A stretch of 62,904 nucleotides of DNA, counting the filler, from Hausera hauseri (Eukaryota), in the NCBI GenBank assembly GCA_046269625.1. It is 11 parts of 11 records of this genome, joined end to end, with 100 filler letters (N's around TTAATTAATTAA, not from the genome) between each part and the next. Parts side by side here need not be neighbours in the genome. Positions count along the whole stretch, not along the records: positions 4,370 to 11,070 come from JBJURY010073882.1; 10 more parts are not named here. One strand, written 5' to 3'. Under the pieces are notes generated by a model. That model searched no databases. It saw nothing but the letters and a program-made list of their open reading frames with translations, and was not told where the DNA came from. Of this stretch, positions 1,080 through 60,779 are shown one piece after another; positions within the stretch are counted from its first letter, which is position 1, and every line of letters starts with the position of its first letter. A program made the position numbers and the translations under genes.

Positions 1080-3635
1080 AGCAAATCAGCCCTGTATCTT
1101 CTGGGTGAGCCAAACACAGTTCTTTCTATCATTCGCCTGTCATAAAATGGTGAAACGCTTGGTCTGTTTTTTCATCATCGCCTCACCAGTGGTTTGCCAA
1201 CACGCCAGTTGTCAGCACGTGTGATAAATGAAGTTACTGCGGTTTGGAACATGGATCATATTTCTACCTGTCGCAAAGACCATGCAATCATCAAGTTGAA
1301 ACAGGTGTACAATGAATGGTCAATTTTGAATAAACACAAGACACGCTAGTCAGAGAGACATAAATCTAATGAATCCAAATTTTGTATAAAGATGAATGAC
1401 CTTTTTGATATTGCTCACGCTAATGCAGCAGAACTGGTTAAAATTTTAGAAGACTTTGAATTTCTAGCGGCACAACATGAGCCTGGTCGACGCGAATATA
1501 TGGGAGCCATTGACACACCACTGGCAGCAAAATAAGAAAGCAGAACACAGTGGAAAGAGCTGGAAAGGGCAAGGCTAGAGCGGGTAAAGACTCAGAGCCA
1601 GCTATTGCAGGCAAGGGTGGAAGCATCTACCACTTCGGCGAGTTCCTCATTGGTGGAAGAAGTCAGCAGCAGCGATGAACCTGAGTCTGAATCTGATTCC
1701 AGTGACACAGTCGAGTATGGGTCATCTACATATACTCCTCGTCATAAAAGGATGAGAGCAACAATGAAAGCCATAACACTGAGGCTAGCAGTTGCATTAG
1801 ATCTCACCAAATTAAGTGACAGGAAGGCCACCCTTGTAATCTGTGAAATGACCAAGAGCTTTGGACATGAGATAAATGATTTCATCATCAACTGTAGTAC
1901 CATCAAGCGTCAGAGAGAAAGATATAGAATGAAAATGGCAGCTGTTTTGAAATAAGGCACAGCAGGGGACATACCACTTGTGATGCATTGGGATGGAAAA
2001 CTGTTGGCAGATCTTTGTGGGAAAGAGCATGTTGATCGCCTTCCAATTATAGTTACTGGCTTTGATGTTAGTCTGCTACTGAAGATAAGCAAGATTGATA
2101 GTGGAACAGGAAAAATCAGGCATCAGCAGTAGTTCAAGCACACGATAAGTGAAACGTCAAAGATCGGGTAATTTAAATGTGCTTTGACACAACCAGTTCG
2201 AACACAGGCATCAGAAAGGGTGCAAGTACTGAAATTGAGACAATGATTAGGAGAGATCTCCTGCATCTGGAATGTTGCCACCATATAATGGAGCTAGTGG
2301 TGCTGCATTCACAACAAGCCTAGGACCCTCGTCTGCTCCAGAGATTTTGCTGCTTGAAAGATTTCAAAAACAATGGTCCTTAGTTGATTAAACCCAGTAT
2401 CATACTGGTGCAAATTTGAGTGGAATTTATAACACAGTAAATCAGGAAATAATAGTCTTTTCTCAACACCAGTTGATGCATGAATCGGTACGAGACGATT
2501 ACCATGAATTCCTTGAACTCTTAGTTATCTTATTGGGCGTTTCATCACCTAGCGGTATTCGTTTCACGACACCAGGAGCAATGCACCACACAAGATGGCT
2601 ATAAAAGGTAATCTACTAATTGAAAGTCTGGACGTTTCAGACAATTCAAAATCACAGAATTTGAAGAGAAGAGCCTATGCGGGATGTGCATATTTGCTGT
2701 TGTAGTTTATCTGAAGGCTTGGTCCATTGCATTCCTAACTGCTAGTGCTCCATTGAGTGACCTTGGCTTGCTTCAGACCCTCCACAGTTACAGACAGTAT
2801 CCACAAAGTAATTTCAAAGACAACTTGCAAGACGTTTGAGTACCACCTGTGGCACCTGTCAGAAGGTTTAGTGGGTCTTGCTTTGTGCCATCCGAGACCA
2901 AACGAAAAATGGTGGATGCCTTGCAGTCAAATCAGCCTAAACGTACATCAGCTGGTTCAAAACGAATCACTATAAAAGTTAGTGATGCATCACAGCACAG
3001 CTTGGAAGATTTTATTAGTTCAAGCAGTGGCAAACTTCTTAACAAGTTACACATTGGTTCCCATTTTCTGTGTGGACCCTGATATGTGGGTAGACAGAGA
3101 TGGCTACAACGAAGACCGAGCGAATGTCAGTAAGCTTGCTGTTACAAATGACAATGCTGAACGAGGTTTAGCACTTGTTCAAGATTTGAACACACTCCTG
3201 ACCTACGATGAGGAACAATTTCAATTCCTTCTGCAAGTTGTAGCTGATCATCAACGTCGTTACCCGGAATGTCTCAAATCTTCGCTGAAGGAGCTGTCAC
3301 ACGCTGTCGCTTACAATGACATATACACCAGTTAGACATTAGGCATTAGACACACACAACTTGTTGTAAGCAGTAATTGAATGTGTATTGTTGAACTGAT
3401 TGCTGACTGTTGACACTGTTTACTGTTCAGATTAATAAAAAGCTGCCAAAGTATCAGTTGGGGAATATGCCACAGTATTCATAGTATAGTAATAACTACT
3501 GATGTATTGAGCGACCTCTAAACATTGTCTAATTGAGGAAATATTTTGCAGACTGATTTTGCCAAAGGAACATTTTAAAATGGTGGGTGATAAGTATTTA
3601 AAAAAAATTTCCTTCCTGATATAAGGACCATCCTA
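1080..3635 (+). mobile_element. Decayed DDE DNA transposon, hAT-like (probably hATm type)
   Basis: Motifs across several frames: LFDIAHANA, HWDGKLL (first D), CFDTTSSNTG (second D), LECCHH (CxxH), VTNDNAERGLAL (E). 3' end GGACCATCCTA at 3625-3635 resembles a hATm terminus. Many stops and frameshifts. Confidence 0.75.
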
Positions 3636-4369: not shown

Positions 4370-4520
4370 AATCATATTTTATCAGTGATATTTCAGATCC
4401 TGTATCTATTAGTGCATAAACCTCCCAATCTTCCAATTGAATCTTTACGAAGGGCCTGCCTTCAATTACTGTATCATAATAGTTTGGTGCTATCTTTTGT
4501 TGTCGTATGGTAGACACTTT
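4370..4520 (-). pseudogene. Retropepsin-type aspartic protease, N-terminal part
   Basis: GRPFVKIQLEDWEVYALIDTGSEISLI (DTG active site); truncated by linker. Confidence 0.9.
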
Positions 4521-5099
4521 TGTAACCTCAGTGGTTCCAACTGGCTGCTCGACTAACTGTCTTAACTCTTTAATTGGGTATAGTGCGTTATTCGTTTCAC
4601 TCGCGTTTTCTACTGTCTGGTTTCTAACTGGCGGCTGAACATCTGAGGTTCGGAGATTTCGTGCTTCATGGTTTCGAGTAAATATCGATTGCGTTTCGTT
4701 TGGCTTAGGTATTCTGGGCCAGTAAATTACACCATGGTCGCCGACTGCTGATCTATGGTGTGGAGCCTAGGTTTTTTCTGTTTCGTGGATCTTACGCAGT
4801 ATCCCATAGCGTTTTGTTCCTTTGTAAGGATCCTCTAAACTAAACGGCTTCCGATAGATAGATTGTTTCTTGCAATCTTCATATATAGGCGCCGTTGGTG
4901 GCAATATTGGTAATGGTAGTTTCATAACGGAGTAATTTTTGTGCCTGTTTGGCCTGAAGAGGGCGTCTCCTCCCTTAGGCTCGTCATCAGCCGAATTATT
5001 TCTTCGTATCTTAGCATTAATAAATTTTTGTCTGTAGTGGAATATACCTCTGTTCCGTTTTCGATAATGGTAGCCAACATGTCGTTCTACATTTGTTTT

Positions 5100-6690
5100 C
5101 CATTTACCCTCTTCATAAGCCTTTATGAATTTGCCGAAGGGAGTAATAATAGCCGTTAAAATTTTGCATGAAAATCCTGTTAAGGTAAATATCTCATATC
5201 CGTTTATGATTGTCTGAATTATAACTTTTACCAGTTGAATTAAAAAATATATCGCTAGAAATCCTTACGCGGCTTGTCCGAATATCAGGAATCTTCCCCA
5301 AATTTTGTACAATATTTCTGTAGTTACCTTCTTATAATAGCCAACACCAAGTAATGACTCCCATTTTGCCTGGTAGCGAGAGTCCTCTAATATTGTATGC
5401 ATTGCTCTGTTTAATTCATGTGTACATTGGCTGGAAAAAGCAAGAAATTCTCTAAACGTTTCTATTTCTTTTGGTCGATAAATACCTTTTGCGGCTGTAT
5501 CTTGAAACTTATCGTCGGTTATTCCTTTTATCAGGTTTGTTCCTGTCAGCTTGGTAGGTGGTGCGATAATACCACCGTTTAGTAAACTTACCCAGTCGGT
5601 CTCGCTCCGTCTGAACATCGGCTCTCTTAAGCTAGTTTTGCAATCTCTCAAAATTGTCGGTTGAATAGCGTTTGCCAACAATACTCTGATAATCGGTGTT
5701 ACTAATCTCGATATGTCCTGATATATCACTGGGTGTTCTTGTATACATCTCTTCTCTTTCACATTAATCGGCACGTCTTTCTTCTCGCACTCATACGTCA
5801 ATAAGACTTTTCCGGTTACTCGTCCAAAAACACCTTCCTTCATCGGAATTATTGGTGATGCCAACTCGGAATTTGCATATATTAGAGCTAGTTTAGTTCT
5901 CATGATTTCCAAGTCCAATGTACAGTCGTTCCTTATCATCTTGTGATATAACTCTGTTATTCCGGCTTGTCCTTCATAGTAGAAATAGTCGTCTCTGTTT
6001 TTTAGATAATCCTCGATTCGAATGTCTTGAGCCTCCAGTTTAAACGTTCTAGTGTTTATTTCCGTCTCCGCTACAAAGAATGCCTCATAATTTGTGGCAT
6101 ACATTATGACATCGCATCTTGTGAATACATCTTTCTTCATAAACTTTAGGCCATGAGTGTCAGAAATCAGTATAGTAGGTGTGGACTGTTCTGCTACCTC
6201 TTCTCGCGTTTTAGAATTAGTTTCTGTACTACTTATATATCGTTTCCCTGTCGTTTCATTGAACTTAAGTTCTTTAATTCTGATAAAATTATTTTCCCTT
6301 GTTGCATTTCTAACTCCATGCCGTCCCACTTTATTATTCCCGTTTCTCTAGCTTTCTTACAATGTTGTCGTTCTAAATTCATCGGAATTGGTGGAGTTGT
6401 CGGTTTGATTATTGATGAGTGTCCATGTATCAGCCAACAATGAAAGATGCTGCGAGATCGTCGCAACATACATTCTACCCCATCTAGGGTAACTAGTTCG
6501 CATTGTTGATATAATATATAACTTTTATCTTTTGTTTCTAATCTGTGGGGCCTTGCATCTTCACACATTTCCAAGTCCATTAACGAATATTTTTGGCGAA
6601 GTCTGAATTTTTCACAATCATATACTGTGACTGCGCCCATTTGTTTTATCAGCATCATCATGGTCAGAAAGTTTATTAACCAATTCGATT
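5100..6690 (-). pseudogene. Chuvirus (Jingchuvirales)-type envelope glycoprotein
   Basis: Signal-like WLINFLTMMMLIKQMGA then VYDC...YSL...C; CMLRRSRSIFHC; CKKARETG; GVFGRVTGKVLLTYEC...CIQEHPV...TPIIRVL...C...PMF...W; C-terminal FLIFGQAA*GFLAIYFLIQLVKVIIQTIINGYEIFTLTGFSCKILTAI. One frameshift near 6300 and one stop at 5265-5267. Confidence 0.85.
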
Positions 6691-6721
6691 CATTTCCTCT
6701 ACGATTTCCAGTTACATTTCA

Positions 6722-9700
6722 TAGTAATTCAGCGTATATATTGCTATCGAAGGATAATCCACTCTGATGTTCTTCCTCTTTTTCGAATAATTTAGACCAG
6801 CTCACTTCTCGGGGTAGCTTCCTGGCAGCCTTCCTTGCCAAACTAATAGCCTTGATGAACTCATTTTTCCGATTCGGATTGGTTTTGAATGCTAGGTATA
6901 GCAGTACTTTTCTCACTTCCTCTATAGCATTCTCTACCATAATTTTCTCAATTATTATTTTATCACTTAAAGTGCTCTTAGTTGATTTACAGCGAAGGTT
7001 CTTCATGGCCTTTGCGGCGTTCGCTATGGCCTTCTTCTCGTCGAATATATCACTGCTTAGGCTAGAGTAGTTTATTATTCGTGTCAGATCTTTCATCAGT
7101 TCGTTCAGTTCCTCATTATCTGCGCCAACGATCGGTATGGACATCTGCCTCAATTCTCTAATCAAGTCTCCATTATAATCGATTTCATCTCGTATCTTCC
7201 GTGGCCTACCAACAGGACGTTTTTGTTTTGTTACCACGGGTATATTACCATCGATTGATACTAAATTTTTATCATACTGCTCATTATGTTCATCCGTTTG
7301 TAAATACTCAAAATACACTGCTGCATCTCGGATTCCCATTATTTGTCCTACCTGTTGTTCTGCTTTGGCCTTTCTTATAGCCTCTTCTTTTGTTTCGTCG
7401 ATAGCGGTGGTTACCACCAACCGGTTCACTTCACCTGAAATAATTCCAACTTCTATTAATAGTCTCGTCTAGTATTTTTCCTCGGAAATAAAGCTTATAG
7501 CTCAACTCATGAGCATATCCGTTGTTCTTTATCTACAGTAATACATCCTTTACTTGGGAACGCGTAGTGAACTGTTGTTCCTTCTCATCCATCCAATCTG
7601 ATGCTATTTTTAGAGGAATCGTCTCTTCCTCCTTTGCCTTTAGAATTTTGGCATATTCTTTGAGTAAAAGCCTGGATACTGTACTGAAGATCGTACCTTC
7701 AATAGCTAATTTAGTTAGAGTGGGGACTAACTGTCTTAAATGAATTTCAGTGAGATTTATTTCAATCAGCTGAGTTAAATCCTTCTAGGTTTGCGCTGGG
7801 TCCAGAAGCATTTCTACGTTGAACCTTTGTTCATGAGAATACATTTCCATTTCGCCTAAGTGTATTGGGGTTTTCGGATTTTCCGCAATCATTGCATCTA
7901 AATAGGCTTCCCAATCTGGTTCACTTTCATTGTCTGGCAGTTGATAGTTTTTCAATGGTGTATCGGTTGGCCTGCCCACCACTGTGGGCCACGTAGTTGC
8001 TTGGAGTTCTTGTAATTTCTGTTGAATCTGGACCATTTTCGTCGTTCGGAAACATCGCCCATTAGCGGACGTTTGGTGGAGCAGTGTTAACAACGAACAT
8101 AATTCTTCGGGTGAAATTAGACTCTTTTCTTCGTATTTCGTTAGTTCGGACGTTACATTTCTTAGTCATCTTTGAATGAATTGTGACTTGTCAGCTTTTT
8201 CGGCTTCTGTGAGGACGTATTTGTTTTTGTAAACTTTGAGTTCTCTATCTAGTTCGTCCAACCTTATTGCTCTCTGTTTTGTCTTAATGCAAGTTTCTTC
8301 GACTTGCTGTATCTGCTGACCAATTGCCTTAGTTTCTCGTAACTAATTTCTGCCATTTCTGCCATTAATAATGCTAATTCGTACATCTCATTAATGTTCT
8401 TTGAATCCGGATCTATCGCATTTAATAATTTTTTTACGAACTTGATCTCTTCGAATTTAAGGTGGCGGTCGTTCTTAATTTTAGTTAATTCGGTATGAAG
8501 TCTTTGATCCGTTCCATCTCTCCACTCTTGGGGACGATGTAAAAACTTAACTGCTTCTTTAACGACTGACCGGTATTCGGGACAAAAGTCCAAATTTTTA
8601 AGATCTTGCATCAAGATTTCTTCGATAAGTTTGGCTGTAACCAGTGTATTCCCTTCAGGCGGATATCTCTTAATCGTGGGTAGAAATCGCAAGTCGCGTT
8701 TCGCTTTCGCGTGAAGCTTGTTTCTTCAATCATTTTATATATATCGTTTAGCACCATCATCTCTTCTTTCTTTTCCATAAAGTTTAATTGACGTAGTGCC
8801 TCGAATTGTGTTCGGATGTCAATTTCTGCTTTCATTGTGTCTAGGTTTTGGGCGTCTTCTTCCAGCTGCTTCTTAACTGTAAGATCACTTTCTGGAAATT
8901 CCTTTTTCCGATCGGCCACTCAGCCTCGTTATTACTCCGGACCATTCTTTCAACTGGTTAGCGATTTCTGGCTTTGCCAGTATCGCTTTATTTAACATTT
9001 TGCGGGCGTCATCTAGCTCGTCATCTGGACCTCTAATAAAATCGATGATCCGGAAGGCATAGTCAAACTCATCCTTATATTCATCGAATTCGAGGATACA
9101 AGTAACAATTATTTTCTGTGTTTCATCATCAGATGGGTGCATGATCCTATTCCTTAGACTGTATATCTGCGACCACTTTTCGACTTCTATTTTAAGACGG
9201 TTTTTTAGACAAGTATATTACCTTGTCGCAGTAGAAGCGATTTTTATCATTTCCGTTAAGGGCGGAATATCTAATGCACCTATGCCCAACATCTCTAAGT
9301 CGTTTGCATCTCGTTTTTTGACCGGCTTCTTTTTTAGTTGTTCAACTATGATGAATCTAAATTCGTCTATGACGCGCTCCAAATTACGTTCTGCTCTTTT
9401 TAATTTCTGGTTGGCTTCTAATGTAGCTAATAACGACTGAGCCTGGTTGGTCCTAGTTTCAATGTTTTGGGTAGTTTTATCCCATGTCTTCTGAAATTTC
9501 GTCTTTCTTTTGATCCACCGTTCTAATTCCCGTTTCCAGTGAAGTAGGGTTTCTTTTGCCACTTCTTCTGGCTGTTCAAATCTATATCTTCACTTAGTTT
9601 CCCTTCGCTACATAGTTTCATATTTTTATATAATCTTTCTGCAAACTGCTGTTCCTTACCAGAAATATCCACTTGTTCGCTCATTGCTTTGAGCTTCTAT

Positions 9701-10400
9701 AGATTATGTCGTAATACCTCTGGGTTGCGACAATTCATCCTCATTCTTTTTTAACTCCTCTGCACTTTTCGACGAGCGTCTGATTTTCCACTTTTTAGGA
9801 TCGAGTTTCTCTTCTCGTTCTGTTTCCTCTTTGCTCGTAGATAAGGGACATACATCATTTATTTTATCTATAGATTTCATCAGCTCACCCATTTCGCTGG
9901 GCGTAACTAAATTAATTTTCGAAATGTCCAAGGCACACTCCGTTTCGCTGTCTAATGAGATTTCCGCATCTCTCTTTGTCCTTGATTTCTCTTTGATTAT
10001 TGGGAATATCGAACGATCTTTACGTTTCTGTTTCAGTGACGGGTTACGGCTTCTATTCTTGGTGGTTTTAAGTATAAGCGCTTCGAGATATTCTTCTTTT
10101 TCTTCGGCCTCTTCCTCCTTGGTTACCTTTTCTCTAGTATACTCAGGTTCTAAATCTGCCTTATCCGGAGTCTCAGGCTTCCCTGATTCGACTGGTTCTT
10201 TGTTTATCGTAGGAGCGTTCTTTTTCCGAGACATATCACTTGGCCTTGGGGGGCAATGGAACGTTCATATTCCGTTTCTGGTTCGCGCAGGCCATGGTAA
10301 ACTTCCATTAATGGTTATTTATGCTTATATTCATTTATAGCCACTAAAACTTTGGGGCCCTTAGCCTAAGGCTGGGCTTTTAAAAAACGTCGTAAATCCT
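6722..10400 (-). pseudogene. Large charged, probably helical ORF of unknown function between gag and env (fragmented)
   Basis: Chain of same-strand, nearly abutting ORFs (9704-10234, 9218-9562, 8885-9142, 8611-8919, 8264-8692, 7785-8093, 6719-7429), K/E-rich, with AT-hook-like KRPVGRPRK at ~7196-7225. Confidence 0.65.
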
Positions 10401-10416
10401 GTATCTCGATAACCAT

Positions 10417-11070
10417 TCATGTGTCTCTACGAACACCGTAAATTGCTTCTAAATTTTCGTTTTTAATTACATTGGTTTTACTAGGTTCCACAAACGAGAC
10501 ACTTCGCGTATTCGGACAGGACCTCGCTATGTGTCCTTCTTGTCCACATGTGAAACAGACTAAATTGCCATTTCTTACAACTCTTTGTCGGCTATCTTCG
10601 TTTAATGTAGATTTTGATCTACTCGGATTTCTATTGTAACCTTGCTGCGGTGGAGTCTGTCTAGGGTCTCCATATTGGCGATTATCATAACTCCGGTTGT
10701 CATTTTGTCGACTAAAAATTTTTACAGCCACCTAGGCGTTTATCTGTCTGATAATCTGATTTATTAGAAAAGCTATTTCGGCTATTATCAAAATTCTGAT
10801 TACTGTATCGATCATTTCTGTGATAATATTTACCGTTTGTGTTCCTATCTCCGTAATTATTGTTAAATCGTCTATCATTTCTATTGTTGCGATTTCTATT
10901 GCTCCGATCACCTTGATCATTATTTCTATAATTTCTATCATTGTCTCTAGTATATGTGGCCAACGCCATTTCCAAGTCTTGAGCTAATTGCATTGTCCTA
11001 TCAAAATTCTCTGGACGTGCTAGAATCAATTGCTTTACTATGTCTTTAGACCAAATTCCATTTATTAATT
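10417..11070 (-). pseudogene. Gag C-terminus with CCHC zinc knuckle
   Basis: RPENFDRTMQLAQDLE, N/R-rich linker, CFTCGQEGHIARSC; one frameshift. Confidence 0.85.
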
Positions 11071-28599: not shown

Positions 28600-29560
28600 T
28601 TCGATTATCCGATATCCGGGTAGCCAATTATTTTCTAATTTGGAGCTTTTCCTGTGCTTCCTATAGTAGACCCTATCTCCGATTTCGAAGTCCTGTTGAA
28701 CTGTTTTTGGGTCACTGTACTATTTTCTTTCTGGAAGGCTGTTTTCAAATTCCTGCTGACTTTTACTGTAATTTCATGCAGCTTTTGCAACAAGCATCTG
28801 TGCAATTCTTCGCCCTGGTATCGAAGCCTTAGTTTGAGTAAATTGTCAATAGGTAGCGTCGGCTCTCTGCCAAACAGCATTTCATATGGGGAGAATTTTC
28901 TGCTCCCATTCTCCATCACTCGAATCACCATTGCAGCTTGACTTAAATATAGATCCAATTCTTTCGGCTGGTCTTGGGCGTAATTAGCTATTACATCGTA
29001 TATTGTCGAGTGTTGCCTTTCATTAATACCATTGGCTCCTGGGTTATATACCGCTGTTTGCACATGTTTAATGTTTAATTCCTTCACTGTGTCACACATT
29101 GCCTTGTTAATAAATTCTCTCCCGTTATCGGTGATGATTATCTTCGGACATCCATATCGGGGTATGAATTTTTCTAGTGGAATATCGATTATTTTTTCTG
29201 CCGATTTGTCGGGCATGGCATATAACTCTGGCTAACCCCTATATACATCGACTATGTGTAGTATATGTTTATTACACGACGCAGTCAGCGGGTGTGGTCC
29301 TGACAAATCTAGACTTATTTTCTAAATTGGGTAGTTTGCATAGTCTGGTTGTTGAAGAGGGTGTTTCAGCACTTCCATCTTTCTTAACTTGCGGCCTTCG
29401 CAGTTCTTTACATAATTCCCGATTTCTTGTATCGTATTTTTCCAATAATATTATCGACTGATCAGTTCCATTATTCTGTCTCTGCTAAATGTCCCAGTTG
29501 ATAGTGGTACTGCAGTAATACCGTATATTTCAGCTTTTGGGGTATACATAGTTGGAAATT
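28600..29560 (-). pseudogene. Integrase (HHCC remnant, DDE core, GPY/F region)
   Basis: YHYQLGH; IPRYGCPKIIITDNGREF; TAVYNPGANGINERQH; FSPYEMLFGREP. Confidence 0.92.
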
Positions 29561-29794
29561 TCTCTTCTCTCCTCCTCCCACTCGATATAATTCTCCGTCG
29601 TCCAATATGAACTTTTTTCTCTTTTTCTGTTTTTCGGTTATCCCCGATTGTTGGTCTTCTATGATGTGTTTCAACTCTTCGTCTCGCTGTTGTTCGGCTT
29701 GTATTTCTAGTTTGTTTTCTTCTATTTCACTGCCGCCTATTTCCGATTCTTGGCTTTCATGCTGGCTCATTTTTACTGGATCGACCGCCAATAT

Positions 29795-30352
29795 TTACAT
29801 AGCATGGTCGTCTACTTCCGGCGTTCCCGCTTCTATTTCTTTTCTCTGGTCTACTTCATTGTTGCTTTTATCTGGGATGCGTGATAACAAATCTGCGATT
29901 GTGTTTTCTGGGCCTGGTATGTATTCGATGTTCATGTTATACCCTTGCAGGCTTATTATCCATGGCTGAATTCTTTTATTCTGGATGTCTGCTCTTAGCA
30001 TTGCCTTTAGCGGCATATAGTCGGTCTTGATGGTAAATTTGCTGTTGTATAGATAAAAGTTCAGTTTTTGCAAGGCGTAGTGAATTGCGTAGGCTTCCTT
30101 CTCAGTCACTGACAATTTCCTCTGGGATTTCGTTAACCTATGAGATAAGAAATATATCGGTTTCTCTCCAGGTACTTCTTTGCCTTTGATGATTTCTCTG
30201 CCGTCTTCTTGAGCTAATATGGCTCCTACGGCGTATTCGGATGCGTCCGTGTACAAAAATATTCCTTGTTGACGTTTGGGTAGGTCAACAGTGGTACTAT
30301 AGTCAAGCTTTCCTGCAGATATTCGAAGGCTTTTTGACAGTTTTCCTCCCAT
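29795..30352 (-). pseudogene. RNase H
   Basis: LYTDASEYAVGAILAQ; SVTEKEAYAI; FTIKTDYMPL; NTIADLLSR. Confidence 0.92.
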
Positions 30353-31318
30353 CGGAACCTTGCGAATTTTCCCGTTAACGCCACTAACGGTTCTGCTATT
30401 ACCGAGAAGTTGGGAATGAATCTACGGTAATACCCGCACGTTCCCAGGAATCTTCTAACTTCCTTCAGCGTTTTTGGTGCTGCCATCGATCGTATCGCTA
30501 TCACCTTTTCTTTGTCTAGCTGCACCCCTTGTCTGTTGATTATGAATCCTAGGTATTTCCTTTCTTCTTTTAAAAATTCGCACTTACTTAGTTTGAGTTT
30601 TACGTTATGTTCTCTCAGTATGTCAAACACCTTCTCTACATGTTCTAAGTGATCTTCGACGTCTTCCTTTGTAAAGATCAAGATGTCATCTATGTAGGCG
30701 AGCGCGTACTGTTGCATGCCTTCTAAAACTATATTCATTAGTGACATATAGGTCGCTGGGGATCCTTTCAACCCGAACGGCATGACGTTCCAGGCATACA
30801 CTCCAGTATGCGTGCAGAACGCACTCTTCATCTTCGCGTCTGGTGACATCGGAATACACCAGAATCCGGACCTCGCATCTAATGTGGTGAAGTAAGTGGT
30901 CAAGTCTAGCACTCCTAGGATGTCATCGATTAAGGGCATCGGGTAACTTATATTAGCTGTTATAGCGTTTAGTGCCCTATAGTTGACACAAAATCTATGA
31001 CTTCCGTCTTTTTTTGTTAAAGACAACTATCGGCGATGACCATTCTGATCTGGTCCTTTCGATTATCCCAGCCTGCAGCATGTCTTTCTCCACGATTTCT
31101 CGGTTCCCGAGCGGCGTTCGGTATGGCTTTAGACTAATCGGTGTGTGGTTGGTGGTGTCAATACTCATTGCGACCATCTGCGTTCTTCCCAATTCCATTT
31201 CCGATAGTGCAAATACGTCTGGGTGTTTCCTAACAAACTTCTCTATTCTTTCTCTGTGTGTTGGTTCTACTTTTATTGTTTCTAGTAGTTTCCTGGTTCT
31301 TTCATCATCCCTTGTCAC
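30226..31318 (-). pseudogene. Reverse transcriptase (Ty3/gypsy)
   Basis: KPYRTP; SEWSSPIV; RFCVNYRALN; LDARSGFW; MPFGL; YIDD; RRFLGTCGYYRRFI. Confidence 0.95.
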
Positions 31319-31372
31319 TTCCGGTATCGTTTTGGCTTTGGTTCCATTTCCACACTCAATCTCTGATTTCTT

Positions 31373-32125
31373 TTAACACTTTGTCTCTGGGTGTTCTTCT
31401 TTGTTTCTCCCTTCTGCTTCTACACTTATTCGTGTTTCTAGTTTCTTTTCTCTTCGGTTTCTTCTCGTGTTTCTAGTGATTGTTTCACATTTCGTCATCT
31501 GCGGCTTCTCTACTTTCGCTATAATACAACCTTTTTGCAAGGTGATTGTCTTTCCAGTGTGATTCGCCACCATTACCGGTATTTCTTTTCTCCTGTTTAA
31601 CCTCACTAATCCGCATATAGTTTGTAGTCCGGGTTCATCAATTATGTCTTTTTCTTCTAACATTGTTATCAGTATGCTCTCCCCTTCTTCCCAATATTGG
31701 TTTCCCTTCATTGCAGCTATCACTATGTTCAACGAATTCGGTTTCATAGTAATTTTTTGCTTTAACCGTATAATTGAGGCTATATGGATGTCATCTTCTA
31801 GGTCTACATATTCATCTTCTATCCTTATCTTTTTCATGTCAAAATAAATATGGGCATTGTTCTTTTTCAAAAAGTCTCTACCTATAATTGTGCTCCGGCA
31901 CATGTTTTTGATTAGCAAGAAATGGTGTCTCATCGTTTTCTTGCCAATCCTAAACTCTAACTGTGTTTTCCCTAGTACTTTCAATTCGCTCCCTGATACC
32001 GATCTTAGGTTGATGTCCTGTCTCACTAGTCTGCTTGGTTTTCTCGGCATTTTATATACCCTTTTGCTTATGATGCTCACTTGTGCGCCTGTGTCTATGA
32101 GACATCTCGCTCTGATATGATGCAC
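31373..32125 (-). pseudogene. Aspartic protease followed by degenerate dUTPase-like spacer
   Basis: CLIDTGAQVSII...IIGRDFL; then IPVMVANHTGKTITLQKGCIIAKV. Confidence 0.9.
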
Positions 32126-32854
32126 GAGCTTGGGTTCTCTGTGTAGTTGATTTCGTATCTTTTCCTTGATTTCTCCCTTACTTTGTTGTTGTCGTTTCCG
32201 TTTCTAGTTGATGTTCATGGTTGTTTCCCTATTGTGGCTGTTTCTTTCCGTCGTTTGGGACAGTGTCGTTGTTCTTTGGCTTTTGGTGTGTGGGTGTTAA
32301 CTTCGTTCTTGTGTTCGGGAATGGGGTGGACTTGCTTTTGGGGTTTGGGCTTTGGTTCTTTTACTACATATCTCTTTTTCTTGGCTTCGTCTATTTCCAT
32401 TGGTACTGGTTCTTGTTTTTGCTGCTGGCTGTTGTTCCGATTTCGGTGTTGCTGCGTATATTGGTTAATCGTTCTTCTTACGTTTTGCTGATATTCTTGT
32501 TTGGTTCTCAACCAGTGCCTATCATTTCTTGTGCTCGAGTTTCGTTTAATCGTTTTTCTATCTTCTCGTTTCGAAATTTGTTCTATATCTATCTTGGTTC
32601 GTAATTTTTCTTCGGCCGCTTCGTTGCCAAATTCTTGTTCTAGGATTTATTTAACTTGGGTTTCTTTTTCTTATAAATCGTGTTTCGTATCTAGTTCTTT
32701 TTCTCGGTGGTGTGGTGTTCGTTCTTATATCTTTTCCGACTATACTGTCTTGTGTTAGGTTGTCGAGTCCTTACCGTTCTCCTGCTTTGTGTGTAGTCTC
32801 GTTTTCCGTTTCTACTGTTGGTTGCTTCCTTTTGCTCCCTGCTATGTCGGACGC

Positions 32855-36171: not shown

Positions 36172-37275
36172 TTACGTGGTTCTCCTTCTCACAAAAATGG
36201 CGTCAATCGTTTCTGCAAACTTTGAGCTAAATTTATAATAAACGAAGAAATTAGTGGCCGCGTTTATTACGCCAGTTAAATAAATGCAGGAAAAAAACAT
36301 CCAGACCAATTTACTATACTTCTGGGCGTAATCAAACTCGGGGATCACGCGATGAATGATGGAGCTGATCACAGATGGCATGTTGCATACCAGGAACATG
36401 GCAGAAATTAATGTCACTTGCTTGTGCACACGGAGTTCCTTGTTCTTCCGGACTCGTCTCTGTTCTTCATTCACTTGCAGTTGCCTTCCATTGTGGTGAG
36501 TCTGATGTGACGCAATCTGTCGCCTAAATATATGCATGCGTCTTCTCTTTGACGCCTGAGGAAGTAAACCCTCCCCTCCATTATAATTCACGTGTCGAAA
36601 TTCACGGGATGATGTTCCATAAACGATAACAACCAGAGACAGAAGAATTAGAATTTGGCACGCGCAGATTAAAACTGTCCTGTTGAATATTGCCAAAAAA
36701 GCATCGGCGTTTCCCCAGCCGCTCCCTACATAGAGAACCACGGTTGTCAAGTTTGTCACAGGATTCCTGTATGGCTTTAGTGAAAGTTGGTTCAACATGG
36801 GCACGTAACATCCTACACAAAAGATGCTGATAAGTCCCATGATGAATTTCGTTCTTGTCTTTCCGAAGATCCTTTTGATATGGAAAGGAAATGCCACACA
36901 ACATCCTCGTTGAACAGCAATAAATGTTTTTATGAGGACAGAAATGTCATAGATGGCGCTCAGGTAGATAGTGAACACGAAAATCAAATCAACCATGTTT
37001 ATTGGTAAATGCACGACAACCAGGCTGATGATGTTACCAACAGCAACAGCTACATCCAATACGATGAAAGAAAGGTCAGTTAGCGATAAAACGAAGAAAC
37101 ACACAGCGACACTGTCTTGTAGACCACTGGCACAATACGTGAAGATGTTCAGGCAGTTGGTGATGAACCCAAGTATGCAGGCGACAATAAAGAAAAACAA
37201 AATGGCGGTACGGAATATATGAAATATGTCATCTCTGATAATGTCATTAGGTTGGACGTAAATGTCACTTGCCAT
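36172..37275 (-). CDS. Intronless rhodopsin-family GPCR, chemosensory-receptor-like
   Basis: Intact 367-aa ORF with seven hydrophobic segments; GFITNCLN (TM1), LSLTDL (TM2), IAVQRGCCVAFP (DRY equivalent), FLVCNMP (TM6), NAATNFFVY (NPxxY equivalent). Confidence 0.92.
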   Translation of the reverse strand: MASDIYVQPNDIIRDDIFHIFRTAILFFFIVACILGFITNCLNIFTYCASGLQDSVAVCFFVLSLTDLSFIVLDVAVAVGNIISLVVVHLPINMVDLIFVFTIYLSAIYDISVLIKTFIAVQRGCCVAFPFHIKRIFGKTRTKFIMGLISIFCVGCYVPMLNQLSLKPYRNPVTNLTTVVLYVGSGWGNADAFLAIFNRTVLICACQILILLSLVVIVYGTSSREFRHVNYNGGEGLLPQASKRRRMHIFRRQIASHQTHHNGRQLQVNEEQRRVRKNKELRVHKQVTLISAMFLVCNMPSVISSIIHRVIPEFDYAQKYSKLVWMFFSCIYLTGVINAATNFFVYYKFSSKFAETIDAIFVRRRTT

Positions 37276-37454
37276 GCTGTGGGAAGGGTGTGGAATGATT
37301 GAAGTTACCTGATGTAATAAAATTGTCTTGTTCCGTGGTAAGATGGTGTGATGATATCTTTAAAGAACAAACTGTCTTCTAGACACTGGTTTCCTGTTCC
37401 GTGGTAAGATAACCAGATGATATGTTTGATACAAAAAATCAGATTTATAAGTTG

Positions 37455-42079: not shown

Positions 42080-42082
42080 TCT

Positions 42083-43770
42083 ATGTCTCTATGCGTGTTT
42101 CACGCTCTGACTAGTCTCTCTCTGTATCTATCTCAGTCTCAGTCTCAGTCTCTGTTTCTCTCTGTCTTTGTGTCTGTCTCTGTGTCTATGTGCCTGTGTC
42201 TGTGTCTGTTTCTATCTCCGCTTTATGTCTCTGTCTATGTCTCTGTCTCTGTGTCTATCAGTGTCTCACTCTCTGACTCGTTTCTGTGTCTCTGTCTCTA
42301 TCTCTGAATCAATCTCAGTCCCAGTCTATATTTCGCTCTGTCTCTGTGTCTGTCGCTCTGTATCGCTCTGCCTATGTCTTTCTGTCCCTGTCTCACTGTC
42401 TCTCTCTCTCGCCGCCTCTATGTCTCTGTCTCTGTCGCTCTGTCTTTGACTCTGTGTCTCTATGTGTGTCTCGTTCCGCCTGGTCTCTCTGTCTCTGTCT
42501 CTGTGGTGGTCTCAGTCTCAGTCTCAACTTCTCTCTGTCTATGTGTCTGTCGCTGTGTCTCTGTCTCTCTCGATCTCTGTCACTTGCTCTCGCTGTCTCT
42601 GTCTCTATGTTTCTGTCTCACTATCTCGGTCGTTCTGTCTCTAACTCTGTGTCTTCCTCTGTGTCTCTCGCTCCGACTCGTCTCTTTGTCTTTGTTTCTA
42701 TTGTGGTCTCAGTCTCACTCTCTATTTCTCGCTGTCTCTCTGTCTCTGTTTATCTCTGTCTTTGTTTGTGTCTCTCTCTGTCTGTGTCTCTTTTCTTGTC
42801 TCTCTCTGTCTGTGTCTATGTCTTTGTCTCCGTCTCTATATCGTTGTCTCTGTCTCTGGTTCTCTCTATGTTTTTCACCCTCTGACTCGTCTCTCTATCT
42901 CTTTCTGTATCTCTGTCTAAGTCTCAGTCTAAGTCTCTATTTCTCTCTGACTCTGCGTTTGTCTCTATCTGTCTTTGTCTCTTTCTGTCTCTGTCTTTGT
43001 CTCTCTCTGTCTCTGTCTTTGTCTCGCTCTGTCTCTGTCTTTGTCTCGCTATGTCTCACTATCTCATTCAATGTCTCGGTATCTGTATCTCCTTGTGTCT
43101 CTGTCCCTCTCTCTCTCTATCCCTCCTTTTCCGTCTGCATGTGTCGCTCTCTCTCTCACTCTCTTTGTCTCTGTCTCTGTCTCTGTCTCTCTATGTCTCT
43201 GTCTTTGTCTTTCTCTGTGAGTGTCTCTGTATTTGTCTCTCTGTGTCACTCTTTGACTCTCTGTCTCTGTCTCTCTGTGCTTCTGTCGCTGTTTCCACTT
43301 CTGTCTATCTCTCGCTCTCCTTATCTATCTCTCGCTCCGACCCGTCTCTCTGGCTCTGTCTGTATCTCTGTCGCACTCTCNNNNNNNNNNNNNNNNNNNN
43401 NNNNNNNNNNNNNNNNNNNNNNNNNNNNNNNNNNNNNNNNNNNNNNNNNNNNNNNNNNNNNNNNNNNNNNNNNNNNNNNNNNNNNNNNNNNNNNNNNNNN
43501 NNNNNNNNNNNNNNNNNNNNNNNNNNNCTGCTTCTCTGCCTCTTTCTCTCTGTCTGTTTCTTTGTTTCTCTCTACCTCTCCCTATCCTCCTTCTCTCTCT
43601 GTCTGTCTCCCTGTCTCTCTCTGACTATGCCTTTATCTCTCTCTGTCCCTGTCTTTGTATCTGTCTGTCTCTGTGTTTGTCACTCTCTGCGTCTATCATT
43701 GTGTTTTTCTCTGTCTATCTTTCTGTCTCTGTCTCCGTCTCTATCTCCTTCTCTGTCTCTCCCTCCATCC
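42083..43770. repeat. Degenerate (TC)n/(TCTG)n/(TCTCTG)n simple repeat with an internal assembly gap (43381-43527)
   Basis: Directly visible pyrimidine-rich low-complexity tract. Confidence 0.97.
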
Positions 43771-53729: not shown

Positions 53730-56700
53730 AACTGCGTCCGGTAAACCTTTACAAATCTTTGGAGTTACTAATTAATATTCACTCTTCCACAGTTCACAAA
53801 CACATTCAAATAAAAATTTACAGTAGCCAATGTACGCATACCTATATTGGGTTCAGACTTTCTGTCCCACTACAATTTACTTGTAGATTGCAAACAATGT
53901 TCCTTAAATAGAGGAAATAATCTTAATAAAATTAGTAGCATTTCGATGACTACCCCGGCGATCGCGTCCAGTAAGTCAATACTAAAGAAAACGACTAGGG
54001 ATTTGAATTATTTTTATAATCATTTATTATATAGAAATCTTTATTACGGTGACAAATGCGATATTGCCAACTGCGTGGCACCTATTACTAATAGCACAGC
54101 TGCCAACACCATCTTCATCACAAACATCCTGCTCCAAATACGACCCAGTCGCAACACCTCCTCTATAACTCATACCTCAACTGCATTTAGTCACGATATA
54201 TCGACACCATCGGATAATTTGTCATCGTTGCCTTCTGACCTACAACAATAAATTTCTTCTTCTTGCACGCGTCTGTTGCAGAAGGACAAATCTTTCGTAC
54301 CACCTCAATCCACTTTTTATCACATAGTAACAGCACATCAAAGACCAATACATCAAAAGGTCCATCCGCTATTGCCTCGTCGCAGACAGGCAGTAGAGGC
54401 TGAGTTTCTCTAACTTGGAAAATCAGGCATAATCCGAAGATTGAAGTCCCCCTGGTCTTCACCACTGCATGCTGTTCCAAAAAATGGCACCTTTCGCCCA
54501 TGCGGTGATTACCGCCAACTTAACATTATAACAACAATGGATGTCTACCTTCTACCATTAATCAATGATATTTTCTACAGGCTCCATAGTTCGACCATCT
54601 TTTCCTGCATTGATTTACACAAAGCATACCACCAAATCCCGGTGGCCACAGCAGACATTCCGAAAACTGCTGTCATTACACCCTTCGGCTTTTTCGAATA
54701 CCTCTTTATGCCTTTTGGACTCCATAGCGCTTTCCAGACCTTCCAAATGCATATAGGCACAGTCCTATCAAATTTAGACTTCGCCTATCCCTATATTGGT
54801 GACATATTAATTGCATCATCTTCATCGAAGCACACTTCGAGCACCTACGTTTGATCTTCCAATGCCTGCACCAAAACAACTTGCAAATCAATTTCTCTAA
54901 ATGCTCCTTTTCAACATAATGTCAACTTCCTAGGACATGTTATTAGCTCCTAGGGACACTCACCTCAGCCAGACAGCATCACACAGCTCAAAAACATTTA
55001 GCTTCTACGTACATCAACAGAGATGCGTTATTTCCTTGGAACCTTGCACTTTATTCATAAATACGTTTCACATTGCTCCACTCTAACCGCTCCATTTGCA
55101 TCACTATGCTCTGGCAAGAAGAGACAGCCTATTCAATGGACCACCAATCTAGTCAATACCTTTGATCGCCTCAAAGACAATTTAAAAACTGTGGAAATCC
55201 TGGCCTATCCAGACTCCCATACAGAACTTTTCTTAACCACTGACGCATCCACAACAGCCGCAGGTGCTGTTCTCCATTAAGTTAAAAATGGATCCCATGA
55301 GCCATTGGAATTCTCTTTTCGAAAATTCACAGCACAAGAGCAAAGATATTCCACCTTTGACCGAGAGTTGATTGCAATGGTCACTGCCGTAAAACACTTC
55401 AAACATCTCCTAACTGCACGAAATTTTACCATAGAAACGGACCACAAGCCCTTGCTTCAAATTGTCAGCATGAAATCGCTTTCTCCACGTCAGGAGAGGC
55501 AAATATCGTGTTTGCCAACATTTAGTTTTGTAATTAAGCATCTAAACGGAGTCCACAATTTAGTAGCTGACTTTTTGTCCCGATCGGTCAGCTCGATTGA
55601 TTTTACACCAATTTTTCCTCAATCTAAACTTCAGCAAAACCAGCCACCTCCTGACATCCCGAAATTTTTTGAATCTTGCAAAACCATTGACGGTGTAGCC
55701 TTTGACACCTCCAAACCTAACAATCCTAAGATCATCCTTTCTAAATCGATTCAAAAAGAAGCATTCAATAGCATTCATTCGTTCATCATCCTGGTACCAA
55801 GTCCACTTTTCGCCTTTTACAACGCCAAGTAGTATGGCCGTCCATGCGCTGTTACGTGCAGCAATGGGTTAGGCAGTGTGTGGCATGCTAAAAATACAAA
55901 GTTACTAAGCACCTAAAACCACAACTGTTTCATTTTCCATGCACGTCTCGTTTTGAATCCGTTCATATTGATCATGTAGGCCCACAACCATTAGACAACC
56001 GCTCCTCGCGATGGCCAGAGGCTGTCCCGCTTCGGAACACCAACATAGAAACCATCGCAGACGTTTTCATCCGCACTTGAATCAGCAGGTTTGGATTACC
56101 TGGCCACATCATTTCGGACCAAGGTCCACAGTTCGAATCCAACCCGTTTAAAGCTCTTGTCAAACGATTGGGAATAATCCACATTCACACATCACCATAT
56201 CATCCCCAATCGAACGGCCTTCTCGAACGCTTTCACGGAACAATGAAAACGTCTCTCAAAATTCTAGCTGAGTCCAATCGCAATTGGACTACACTCCTTC
56301 CGTACGTTCTGCTTGGCTAGCGGAACACACCATCTACTTCTACAGGCTGTTCACCTGCAGGAGCATTATTTGGCACTTCCATCAGATCATTATTCGAGCT
56401 GACTGAGCTGGACAATACTCCTACAGACGAAACCATACAAGCTTCACAATGACACTTTGTTGAGATAAGCTAAGACTCATTTTGCAGACTGTTACAGGCA
56501 AATAAACCCTACATACCCGATGATTTATATACTGCTAAGTTCGTTTGGTTAAAGAATCTGACGCCGTGTGGCTTTCAACCTTAGTATGTCGGCCCTTACA
56601 AAGTAATTCGCTTGCACTTCCATAACATCATCATTTTCAAAGACGACAAAGAAGTAACCGTTCACATCAATAATGCTAAACCGGCCTTCTTTATTGACGA

Positions 56701-57400
56701 CACATCTCCCATCGAAACCACTTATCCACCAACATCTTTACACGACATGCAGCAATCTAACAATTCACCATCCATTCCTGCTTAATTTCTTAATCAACCT
56801 TTGTCTACGTTTTCTCCAAAAACTTCCACTTTAATTTCATCTCACAATTCAGCATGCTTCTCCCCATCCGATTTTGCACCTTCAAGCCTTCTACCACCTC
56901 GTTCATCTCCTTACAACAACGTGCTTTATCCTTTTACAGCACTTCCTCCATCAAACACTATTTCAACTTCACCAATCTCTCCATCTACACCTTTCACCAT
57001 TCCAACCTCTTGCACATCACCCTCTAACTTCTTTCCTTTGCCTTCTCTATCTCCACGCTCTCTCTCGATCTGTCCCTCTTTTCCACACCTTACTCATCTT
57101 CGGCGCTTTCTTCCCCCCTTTTTCCTCACATCAACTTTTACTCATTTTACTTCTGCTTCACAACTTTCTCCTCTCTTTACCTCTTTCTCCACCCCTTTTC
57201 CGCTTATTACTACAACTTCTGTTTCATATTCCACTTTTACTATCTCAGATAATTCAATTCCAACTTCTACTCCAACTTCTCATTGTCTTCCTTTACCCGC
57301 CATTACACCTTTAATCACTACTTTGTCTTCAACAATCTCTCTTTCTCATTCACTTTCTCCTTCTCTTTATTGTGACTCATCTTTGCACGACACAACACTA
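53730..57400 (+). mobile_element. CsRn1-like Ty3/gypsy pol (PR end, RT, RNase H, IN) and Pro/Ser/Thr-rich tail, decayed
   Basis: LGSDFL; SPWSSPLHAVPK...RPCGDYRQLN; IDLHKAYHQIP; YIGD; LTTDAS; YSTFDREL; TDHKPL; ISDQGPQFES; YHPQSNGLLERFH. Confidence 0.93.
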
Positions 57401-57835: not shown

Positions 57836-59520
57836 GAAAGAATCTTTCATCATAAGGGTGTTTAACGCTCGACAATCGATATAAAATCGATGTTTTGTAG
57901 TACCCTTCTTTTTAACCATAAGTATGTACGAATACCAAGATCTATGGCTCGGTCTAATTATGTCAGCCCTAAGCATGCGTTCGACTTCCTTTGTTATCTT
58001 GGGTCTTAACGAGTGCGGAGGATACCATTTTGGCATCTCTTGATCTTCTAGATCAATTTCATCATTTGAGCCTGGCTTTGTCTTAAGCGGAATTGTTAAT
58101 CTCAAGGCTTTAGCTCTACCAATGTCTTCGTCGTCTTTAGCAATGACTGAGCTATATAAACAAGGTAGTTTGTAAAAACGACAGTGATTCTGGTAAGAAT
58201 TTACTTTCGACGTGAAGTGGAAATTCGGCACATTTGTAAGGTTTTTCTTCAATAGTTATTGATGATACTCTATACGTGTGACCCAAGGTGGTATTAGCGT
58301 ACAGTTTGATTTGGGTCGGCGCGTTATTAGCTATTCTGATCGGCACACGACCCGCTGACACTCTTTGTTAATATATTAATGAGTATGATGCTTGGGTTTA
58401 ATGATTCTTTTGGTTCGAAATATACTGGCTGGTCATCATCTTGACGGATTTGAGCATATATTAACATTTTAGTTCTTGGTGGAATGTTTTCGCCTACTGG
58501 GATCCATACTTCTCCAAATTTCCTTTCTTTAGTAGTCTTACGTCCTTTTAGCGGAACGAGTTCTATTAATTTTCCCGCATGGATGTCTATAGTTACATTT
58601 GGTAGTTGTCTTAACAGATCACATCCTAATACTACCTCATCAGTTAACTGTTCCATTACTGAGAATCCATCGTTTAAAGATTGTCACATTATGTGAATTT
58701 TTGGTTCCATCGATATTTGCTTTTTGACGACTGTCCAAAATCTCCAATACTTTCTGGATCTGTTGTTGGAGTTGGATATAATTGTTTCTGTTAAAACTGC
58801 GGTATTGAGTAATGCTTTATTAGCGATATTTCGGATCCAGTATCTATCAGTGATAAACTTCCAAATCTAACGGAATTTTCGCGAAAGGTCTACCTTCGAT
58901 TACCGTGCCATAGTAATTCGGTGCTACTTTTGGATGTAGAATCATTGATACTTTATACCCGTTAATTTTAACTTTTGTGGCTGCGACTGGCTGGTCGATC
59001 AATTGTCTTAGTTCTCCATTTGGGTACAGTTCATTGTTCGCACAATTGACAATTTCTGTTTCCTGACTTCTAACTGGGGATTGCAGTTCTTGATTTCTAA
59101 AAGTATGCATTTCGTGGTCTCTTGAAAGTGTTGGACGTGTCTCGTTTGTCCTGGGTATTCTAGGGGAATAAAGTATTCCGTGGTCGTCAATTGCTGAAAG
59201 ACGATATGGGGCAGAGGTTCTTTTCGTTTCATGCATTTTACGTAACACCGTAATGTTTTGTTCCTTCATAGGGATCTTCAAGGTTAAACGGTTTTCTATA
59301 GATATCCGTTTTATGAGCTCATAGATTGTTTCTCACAATATTCATATATAGGCACGGTTGGCGATAATATGGGTAACGGTGGTTTTATAACGGATTAGTT
59401 TTTGTGTCTATTTATCTTGTAGACGACATCTCCTTCCTTAGGCTCGTCATCGTCAGAGTTATCTCTTCGTGTCTTGACATTTATGAATTTGCGTTTGTAA
59501 TTAAATATGTCTTGTGGGTT
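57836..59520 (-). mobile_element. Second copy of the Env-Pol family: env tail/linker, protease, dUTPase-like spacer, RT start
   Basis: DIFNYKRKFINVKTRRDNSDDDEPK matches GIFHYRQKFINAKIRRNNSADDEPK (4975-5048); APNYYGTVIEGRPF...IDTGSEIS; VLGCDLL; KEVERMLRADIIRPS...MVKKKG...RFYIDCRALN. Confidence 0.88.
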
Positions 59521-60779
59521 CGTCATTAAGAGAGAATAACATAAATCCAACGATAATGAAAACAAATCCTTGACGACATTCATTCTGTATTTCTTTTTAT
59601 TGTCTAACAATTCAAATCATTTAAAATCAATTATCGACAAATTCCTCTACACAATCTATTGTTAATTGAAAAAAAAGGAAAAACAAAACTTAGAGACAAC
59701 AAATAATAAGCCATACAACAACAATAGAGAGAATAGTATAATAGTAATAAATAAACAGTTAATTTGAAAAGGTCAAATAATAATTTCAAAAGCGGTTCTA
59801 AATGCATCAAAAGTACTACTCATCAGTGGAAGCTTTCCGAATTAAAAAACATTGATTTTTGTCTGACTATTCACATTCAATACTTATCCTCTGTCTCACA
59901 CGTATGTATATGTTTACATTCAAACTTCAAAGAAAACATTGTAATGATAGCTTCCCGAATTCTCTGGAAAACAGCAACATTGGAAGAATCAAATACCAGT
60001 CAATTATCGCAAGGAATTAGATTCTGAATCCCTGTCCAAGGTAACAACCTGTGTGTCGTATAGTTACATGGCAGGGAAAATCCTTTCACCGATCCACTAA
60101 CCCCTCCTGTGCGACCACACCCTAGGCACTATAAAAAATCTATTCTGACAACTGTAAAACCGTTATTCTCACCCATCTAACACCATGCAAACATTTTAAT
60201 TTCTTGTATTCTTGTGTAAATCACGCACCGAACGATCAAACAGTATTATTCGAGGTCCTCCAATCAAATTCACTAAGAAAATATCCAATTATTAAAATAA
60301 AAAAATTCTTTTCTTGGTCTACATTACATGGTATTATTTTAAACGATTGGACACTGGCTTTACCTTTATTCAAGTATTGGTTTTTCATACCTTTTTATGC
60401 ATATTGGTAGTTGCACTATGACAATTATTGATAAAACCTATCTCAACCTCCTACCACCGAATTGGAATTATCCGGATCCAGCTTCGATGTTTTGTTTCAA
60501 CGTTGCCGGAAACCTTAACTTACCAGGGCATCTCCCGAGCATTATTTCTCAACCCCTCTCGTTCTTTGTTTTTCATAATAACAAACACATTTTACCACGT
60601 ATGCAGAACACATAGAAACTACACATACCATTTATTCTTCTCTATCATCCCATCTCAATTCCTCTGACTTTTATCTGTCATACCACGGTTCAGTTTGACA
60701 TCCGTCTGACTCATTTTCTTCTTTTGCTCACTTCATCATTCACCTCATACTTCATTATCGCGTCCGGGGCGGATCGGAC

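Follow-up and report, generated by a model that had tools for sequence, protein, structure and literature searches.

What kind of retroelement places an envelope gene upstream of, and in frame with, a Ty3/gypsy protease, and what might that order mean for how its polymerase reaches the particle? The locus that raises this question lies in a 62,904-nt stretch of Hausera hauseri DNA (assembly GCA_046269625.1; all of it hereafter called the window) that consists of short contigs joined by N spacers, with the element on the minus strand of the contig at 4370-11070 (JBJURY010073882.1). That contig is truncated at both ends, inside gag and inside the protease. Along this one contig and strand we find, in order, a zinc knuckle (10510-10560), a signal-like stretch, env (6718-5180), a membrane anchor, a linker and the start of a protease (4457-4372); that is, the gag, env, pol order is present in the window copy. 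This copy could not make the polyprotein, because it carries three stops, a frameshift and a deletion; it is the decayed remains of one copy of an LTR retroelement with many copies, which is likely Ty3/gypsy and Burro-like. Two public runs (X1 and X2) contain the stretch in part, and 13,504 and 1,199 Logan contigs from them, respectively, were aligned. These contigs fill 30 of 30 bins of the stretch in both runs, and the family is therefore high-copy along its whole length; none of the pieces listed covers the whole stretch.

The envelope gene is recognizable in three pieces, all of which match PF24664, the Monjiviricetes fusion glycoprotein family, above its cut-off. The first piece (6236-6718, minus strand) covers positions 5-130 of the family (E 7.2e-10); the second (5268-6347, minus), which holds the central helix, domain IV and the membrane-proximal part, gives the strongest match (E 4.5e-22); and a third match spans 4770-5264 (E 8.3e-08). 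The first piece lies in a different frame from the second: relative to intact relatives, there is a frameshift with a loss of roughly 85-105 ectodomain residues at 6245-6300 (minus), where tblastn alignments of the relatives P0001, P0002 and P0004 jump frame and skip residues. Logan pieces terminate at 6268 and 6287, near this frame switch. The preliminary description of this locus, made from the DNA alone, had read env as a single frame from 6690 to 5100, which must be corrected accordingly; its identification of the gene as a chuvirus-type envelope is borne out by the family matches and by a predicted fold like those of chuvirus G and herpes gB. Directly before the xYDC motif with which mature Env begins lies an internal, hydrophobic, signal-like stretch (6623-6685, minus; hydropathy 1.5). 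The same order of signal stretch and xYDC motif recurs in 14 of 14 relatives, and cleavage would presumably fall between the two. Since the only in-frame Met codons past the stop at 6719-6721 lie within the hydrophobic stretch itself, a separate start for env is unlikely.

The modeled part of Env was the 360-aa second piece only, folded with 103 aligned sequences, which gave a mean pLDDT of 85.7. In a structure search of the PDB with this piece, the top 12 rows were all herpesvirus gB (best E 3.7e-04), and a second structural comparison of the model with herpes gB gave a Z of 10.2, with 244 residues aligned at an rmsd of 5.9. The best match in a library of viral structures (BFVD) was a chuvirus glycoprotein, with an E of 3e-14. 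A class III fusogen fold, which the preliminary description had predicted and had proposed to check in this way, is thus well supported by the predicted structure.

Downstream of the ectodomain, the minus-strand frame whose end coordinates equal 2 modulo 3 contains stops ending at 6350, 5267 and 4769 and is then open to the contig end near 4370. The hydrophobic anchor region (5180-5306, minus), which corresponds to PF24664 positions 553-601, peaks at a 19-residue mean of 2.17 at 5261-5205; it is interrupted by a TAA (5265-5267, minus), through which the relatives align in one frame. There follows a predicted cytoplasmic linker of about 240-250 aa between anchor and protease (4460-5179, minus), open except for one TAG (4767-4769, minus) that is private to the window copy: the codon is sense in every covering Logan contig (20 of 20 from X1, which may be the window's own source, and 2 of 2 from X2), a check that had been suggested at the outset. 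The linker leads into the start of a retropepsin (aspartic protease) domain at 4372-4457 (minus), recognized with a profile of the relatives' protease starts and truncated by the contig end after only about 26 residues. Its ALIDTGSEISLI motif (ALIDTG) sits 284 codons past 5267, and with the 30-column protease-start profile this site scores highest in the whole window (18.1 bits, iE 3.3e-05). The shared frame from envelope to protease is therefore real in this copy: the second half of Env, the anchor, the linker and the retropepsin start are all read in it. That 5265-5267 and 4767-4769 are the only stops, as had been stated, holds from the second half of Env to the protease; a TGA at 6719-6721, before the signal, had been missed.

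On the Gag side, the nucleocapsid CCHC zinc knuckle (10510-10560, minus; within an ORF at 10417-10731) matches PF00098 with an E of 6.4e-08 and also matches the knuckle regions of the relatives L002, L003 and P0006. Between it and Env runs a broken spacer (7469-10416, minus) made of several ORF fragments, each 100-190 aa long, whose frame keeps changing; no Pfam family above cut-off and no named domain was found in it, and it is covered by Logan contigs from both runs. Near 7800-7600 this decayed copy has a weak similarity to the spacer of L003 (iE 0.05-0.1). The last part, a 249-aa ORF in the frame of the Env signal (6722-7468, minus), is without a Pfam match and is likely the end of the Gag-side spacer; the Logan pieces 6287-6903 and 6558-6837 run gap-free from it into env. 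The TGA at 6719-6721 (minus), detected by frame scan, marks the boundary between this ORF and the Env signal. By eye, 7620-7430 (minus) looked ubiquitin-like across a frame change, a reading that we rejected as unsupported by Pfam. Pfam likewise gave no significant match in the window copy, which is decayed, to the accessory domains of Burro elements (Bcl-2, ankyrin, MATH, ubiquitin-like).

A second, more decayed copy lies on a separate contig (57836-62904). Its similarity to the first copy starts near 5067 and runs down from there, so that it shares with it the linker and protease start only (58812-59530, minus; 68% identity by blastn over 699 nt), with at least three changes of frame in the shared part by tblastx and no env match upstream. 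At the position matching the first copy's TAG at 4767-4769 it has a sense codon. The remaining protease, a spacer and the N-terminal part of an RT follow in changing frames (57836-58700, minus). The RT piece (58228-57836), about 115 aa of the N-terminus that lie outside the conserved core, runs into the contig end ahead of the YxDD motif; it is 36% identical to P0002 (E 4.5e-11) and scores 45-60 bits on eight env-fused relatives, versus no more than 25 bits on the other, broken RT remnants of the window. It matches best to fused relatives whose domains include RT_RNaseH and Integrase_H2C2 of the gypsy type. What had been said of this copy thus stands for the sense codon and the RT, of which only an N-terminal part is present, and has to be qualified by its frame changes and by the lack of an env. 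The link between env and RT in the window is made only through two different copies; no single copy joins both.

Other features of the window include three further decayed gypsy-like pol regions with no adjacent env match (28638-32203, minus; 54318-56779, plus; and 62650-62904, plus) and an intron-free 395-aa ORF for a rhodopsin-family GPCR (36172-37359, minus), for which only five relatives were found, at 31-37% identity. A degenerate tandem repeat array at 42080-43766 extends over long open frames (42308-43624, 438 aa) without a Pfam match. By eye, there is also a broken remnant of a Polinton-type packaging ATPase (11600-11170, minus), an 82-aa piece of which has no Pfam match, and, on the contig next to that of the element, a piece of a Tc1/mariner-like transposase (4267-3908, minus), again without a Pfam match.

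The relatives of the window Env are where the layout can be seen intact. Of 1.84 billion representatives scanned with HMMER, 210 matched at E ≤0.001; the best of these are 30-34% identical and mostly long, and no relative exceeds 34% identity to the window Env. When longer relatives were sought by word-index search of proteins, none turned up among 1,969 candidates, and the ESM Atlas gave no usable match. We scored 155 sequences locally, 59 of which extend to the anchor. A protease motif follows the anchor in the same protein in 13 of the 19 sequences that score at least 60 bits, versus 1 of the 40 below 60 bits, and in 12 of the 13 fused close relatives the linker is 117-377 residues long. 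In the other six of the 19 no protease follows: three end ahead of the anchor, and P0007, P0016 and P0014 end 57, 50 and 94 residues past its start, respectively, at a stop or a contig end. P0159, which is 82% identical to P0007, is fused, and carries a capsid, two knuckles, a Bcl-2-like domain, Env, a protease and ankyrin repeats; accessory domains of the kinds known from Burro occur in P0007, P0151, P0159 and L003. When 24 proteins were annotated with Pfam, env was followed by a protease in 10 and accompanied by an RT in 5, and the env-then-protease order was further found by Pfam in P0151, P0163, L001 and L002.

These proteins also change the unit under discussion. All 14 relatives checked have at least 149 residues, among them a hydrophobic stretch, ahead of mature Env, and 7 of the 14 have knuckles there, so that what had been described as an Env-Pol unit is a Gag-Env-Pol unit. 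Knuckle and Env lie in one uninterrupted protein in L002, P0002, P0006, P0009, P0013, P0022, P0159 and P0160. A quick tree built from 96 Env rows places the window sequence on a long branch (1.25) within a group of 23 rows that includes all 14 fused ones (SH-aLRT 87, below 95). P0002 is itself a Gag-Env-Pol protein; its NCBI entry (HBK71150.1) lists it as hypothetical, from a metagenome-assembled genome of Flavobacteriaceae, and it is most likely a mis-binned animal retroelement. Several of the polyproteins (P0151, P0004, P0006, P0001, P0013 and P0160) contain two to six protease-like D[ST]G motifs each, some of them past the integrase (at 2319 in P0004; at 3357 and 4107 in P0151).

At the DNA level, a locus search with the window Env returned nothing in metagenome or viral contigs, one with P0002 nothing in genome contigs, and one with alignment A3 nothing in viral contigs. 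Among metagenome contigs, 6 of 108 candidate stretches were confirmed (L001-L006): L001-L003 belong to the fused group, in L004 env ends at a stop of its own, and L005 and L006 represent decayed elements in which pol precedes env. L002 (97-11205) is a single frame of 3,703 codons that encodes two knuckles, Env, anchor, protease, RT, RNase H and integrase, and L001 is a single frame of 3,426 codons whose 5′ end is open; no LTR pair was found in either. The preliminary description had proposed to look in metazoan genomes for single ORFs with Env, retropepsin and RT; the L002 frame, from a metagenome contig, is one such ORF. A separate ORF of about 460-500 aa with an RNase_T-type exonuclease match comes after the element in both L001 (10617-12104, E 1.4e-05) and L002 (12085-13470, E 0.0011).

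The order of domains, for which the preliminary description knew of no described element without excluding one, has been published, in frame, for the Burro elements of planarians. Burro/GYPSM1 are giant Ty3/gypsy elements with Env in frame in the gag-pol interval of one 4,873-aa polyprotein (Arkhipova and Yushenova 2019, PMC6431247). Their Env resembles mononegavirus fusion glycoproteins, a long spacer separates knuckle and Env, copy number is high, the internal region reaches up to 25 kb, and the accessory domains include MATH, ubiquitin-like, Bcl-2, BIR and ankyrin (PMC6431247). Set beside this published description, the window element shares the placing of Env before the protease, the long spacer and the high copy number, and the close relatives of its Env share the Bcl-2-like and ankyrin domains, with the domains of P0159 corresponding to the Burro set. 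The differences are that Burro is described with two or three knuckles, whereas one was seen in the window copy, and that the window copy is decayed and has no detected accessory domain. Where Burro has Env in one ORF with gag and pol, the window copy retains the second half of Env in frame with the protease, and its gag-env part is broken; the single ORF is found in the relatives. The accessible part of the Burro account contains no mention of multiple D[ST]G motifs (PMC6431247).

Several other groups come close to this one. GAG-ENV-POL errantiviruses with an HSV/gB-type ENV have been reported from Nematoda, Bryozoa and Platyhelminthes, and the ectodomain is flanked by two membrane segments in some of them (Chary and Hayashi 2026, PMC13524379). 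They share with the window element the gag, env, pol order and a gB-type, chuvirus-like Env, and, on inspection by eye, the window Env looks like the six Schmidtea C1a ectodomain rows of their supplement and unlike its nematode C1 rows. They are described as three ORFs, and the main text, as far as it was accessible, is silent on polyprotein, in-frame, single ORF, fused and Burro and contains no packaging model (PMC13524379). Before that work, Sacco and colleagues (2022; J Gen Virol 103:1739) are reported to have described a nematode metavirus with env before pol, attributed to capture of an RNA-virus glycoprotein. Anakin elements, as far as their description was available, carry a chuvirus glycoprotein of the same family (PF24664) as the window Env, but they are BEL/Pao elements with env after pol (Dezordi et al. 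2020, PMC7642597). We rejected a BEL/Pao identity of the Anakin kind: env precedes the protease in the window, and the fused relatives among the 24 proteins annotated have no BEL/Pao-type Pfam domain. The matches with a BEL/Pao layout, P0031 (DUF5641) and P0134 (integrase before env), scored 54 and 40 bits, compared with up to 192 in the fused group. Troyka was also rejected, since no Troyka encodes an envelope.

Taken at its face, the element is a divergent, decayed member of the Gag-Env-Pol elements, whose layout is itself already published. Nematode non-canonical endogenous retroviruses reportedly have a continuous gag-env-pro-pol ORF. It is very probable that the intact form of the window element encoded Gag, a gB-fold Env and Pol together, as its intact relatives do. 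Two readings compete with this. According to one, which we consider improbable, the DNA holds a single frame, but a regulated stop or frameshift before the signal divides Gag from Env-Pol, with Gag made in excess and Env-Pol by read-through. Capsids of retroviruses and Ty3 are established to need Gag in excess of Pol, the TGA at 6719-6721 is in frame before the signal, and L003 has a TGA (3058-3060) at a nearby place, in frame between a 999-aa Gag-side ORF (with the knuckle and a weak ubiquitin match) and the Env signal. By tblastn, however, these two stops are about 10 codons apart, and are therefore different sites; P0003, with a signal region resembling that of L003, reads through; the eight relatives listed above have knuckle and Env without interruption; and the TGA is one of many breaks in the window copy. 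The other reading, more improbable still, is that an env-bearing sequence was joined near 5050-5100 to an unrelated gypsy pol, by nested insertion or by misassembly, as a short contig of a high-copy family and a second copy whose similarity begins only near 5067, with no env ahead of it, might suggest. Against such a chimera, the frame is maintained across 5050-5100, and 53 contigs of X1 support a Logan row at 5066, their ends lying up to 61 letters away; of the joints and loose ends listed, none lies at 5050-5100. The same fusion, with the linker lengths given above, recurs in the closest Env relatives, and the RT of the second copy is closest to that of the fused relatives.

If the fused layout is accepted, the topology suggests how such a polyprotein might work. 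The Gag part would be synthesized in the cytosol, after which the internal hydrophobic stretch would thread Env into the ER lumen and signal peptidase would cut before the xYDC motif. The anchor would then stop transfer, leaving the protease, RT and integrase hanging on the cytosolic tail of Env. The signal peptidase cut would separate Gag from Env-Pol. Pol, still attached to Env, would thus enter the particle as it buds, and trimers of Env could bring the proteases together, letting them dimerize and set the enzymes free. Gag, Env and Pol would be produced in a 1:1:1 ratio, barring splicing or a leaky stop. It is established that Pol rides on Gag in every well-studied retrovirus and LTR element other than the foamy viruses. 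Our literature search, made mostly among openly available papers, found no test of Pol packaging via Env. From the topology we regard packaging of Pol through Env as plausible, at best evenly balanced between true and false. More tentatively, the group as a whole might be flavivirus-like enveloped retroviruses, with one membrane-spanning polyprotein from which signal peptidase would release Gag and in which Pol would remain tethered to the cytosolic tail of a class III fusogen. Env trimerization, not Gag assembly, would then package the enzymes and activate the protease; the tandem protease-like domains that many relatives carry would have a role in this route, and the window element would represent a divergent branch new to the group.

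A serious contender, which we rate somewhat short of even, accepts the layout and has Pol packaged by other means: either an early cytosolic protease cut releases it, or a spliced Gag-Pol RNA skips env, and Pol joins capsids through Gag or RNA. The two or more protease-like motifs behind the anchor in many relatives could favor early self-cleavage, and Pol packaging that involves splicing and RNA guidance is known from other retroelements, the foamy viruses. Against this contender, retropepsins are established to become active usually on dimerizing in the assembling particle.

Work on the mechanism would be better served by intact Burro-like elements than by the window copy, which, being broken and on a short contig, makes a poor model. 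What the window copy adds is a divergent, high-copy member of a group whose fused form is common among unnamed metagenome proteins. If it is true that Pol rides on Env in these elements, theirs would be a different way of building a reverse-transcribing particle, and the envelope would be essential even for movement within a cell.
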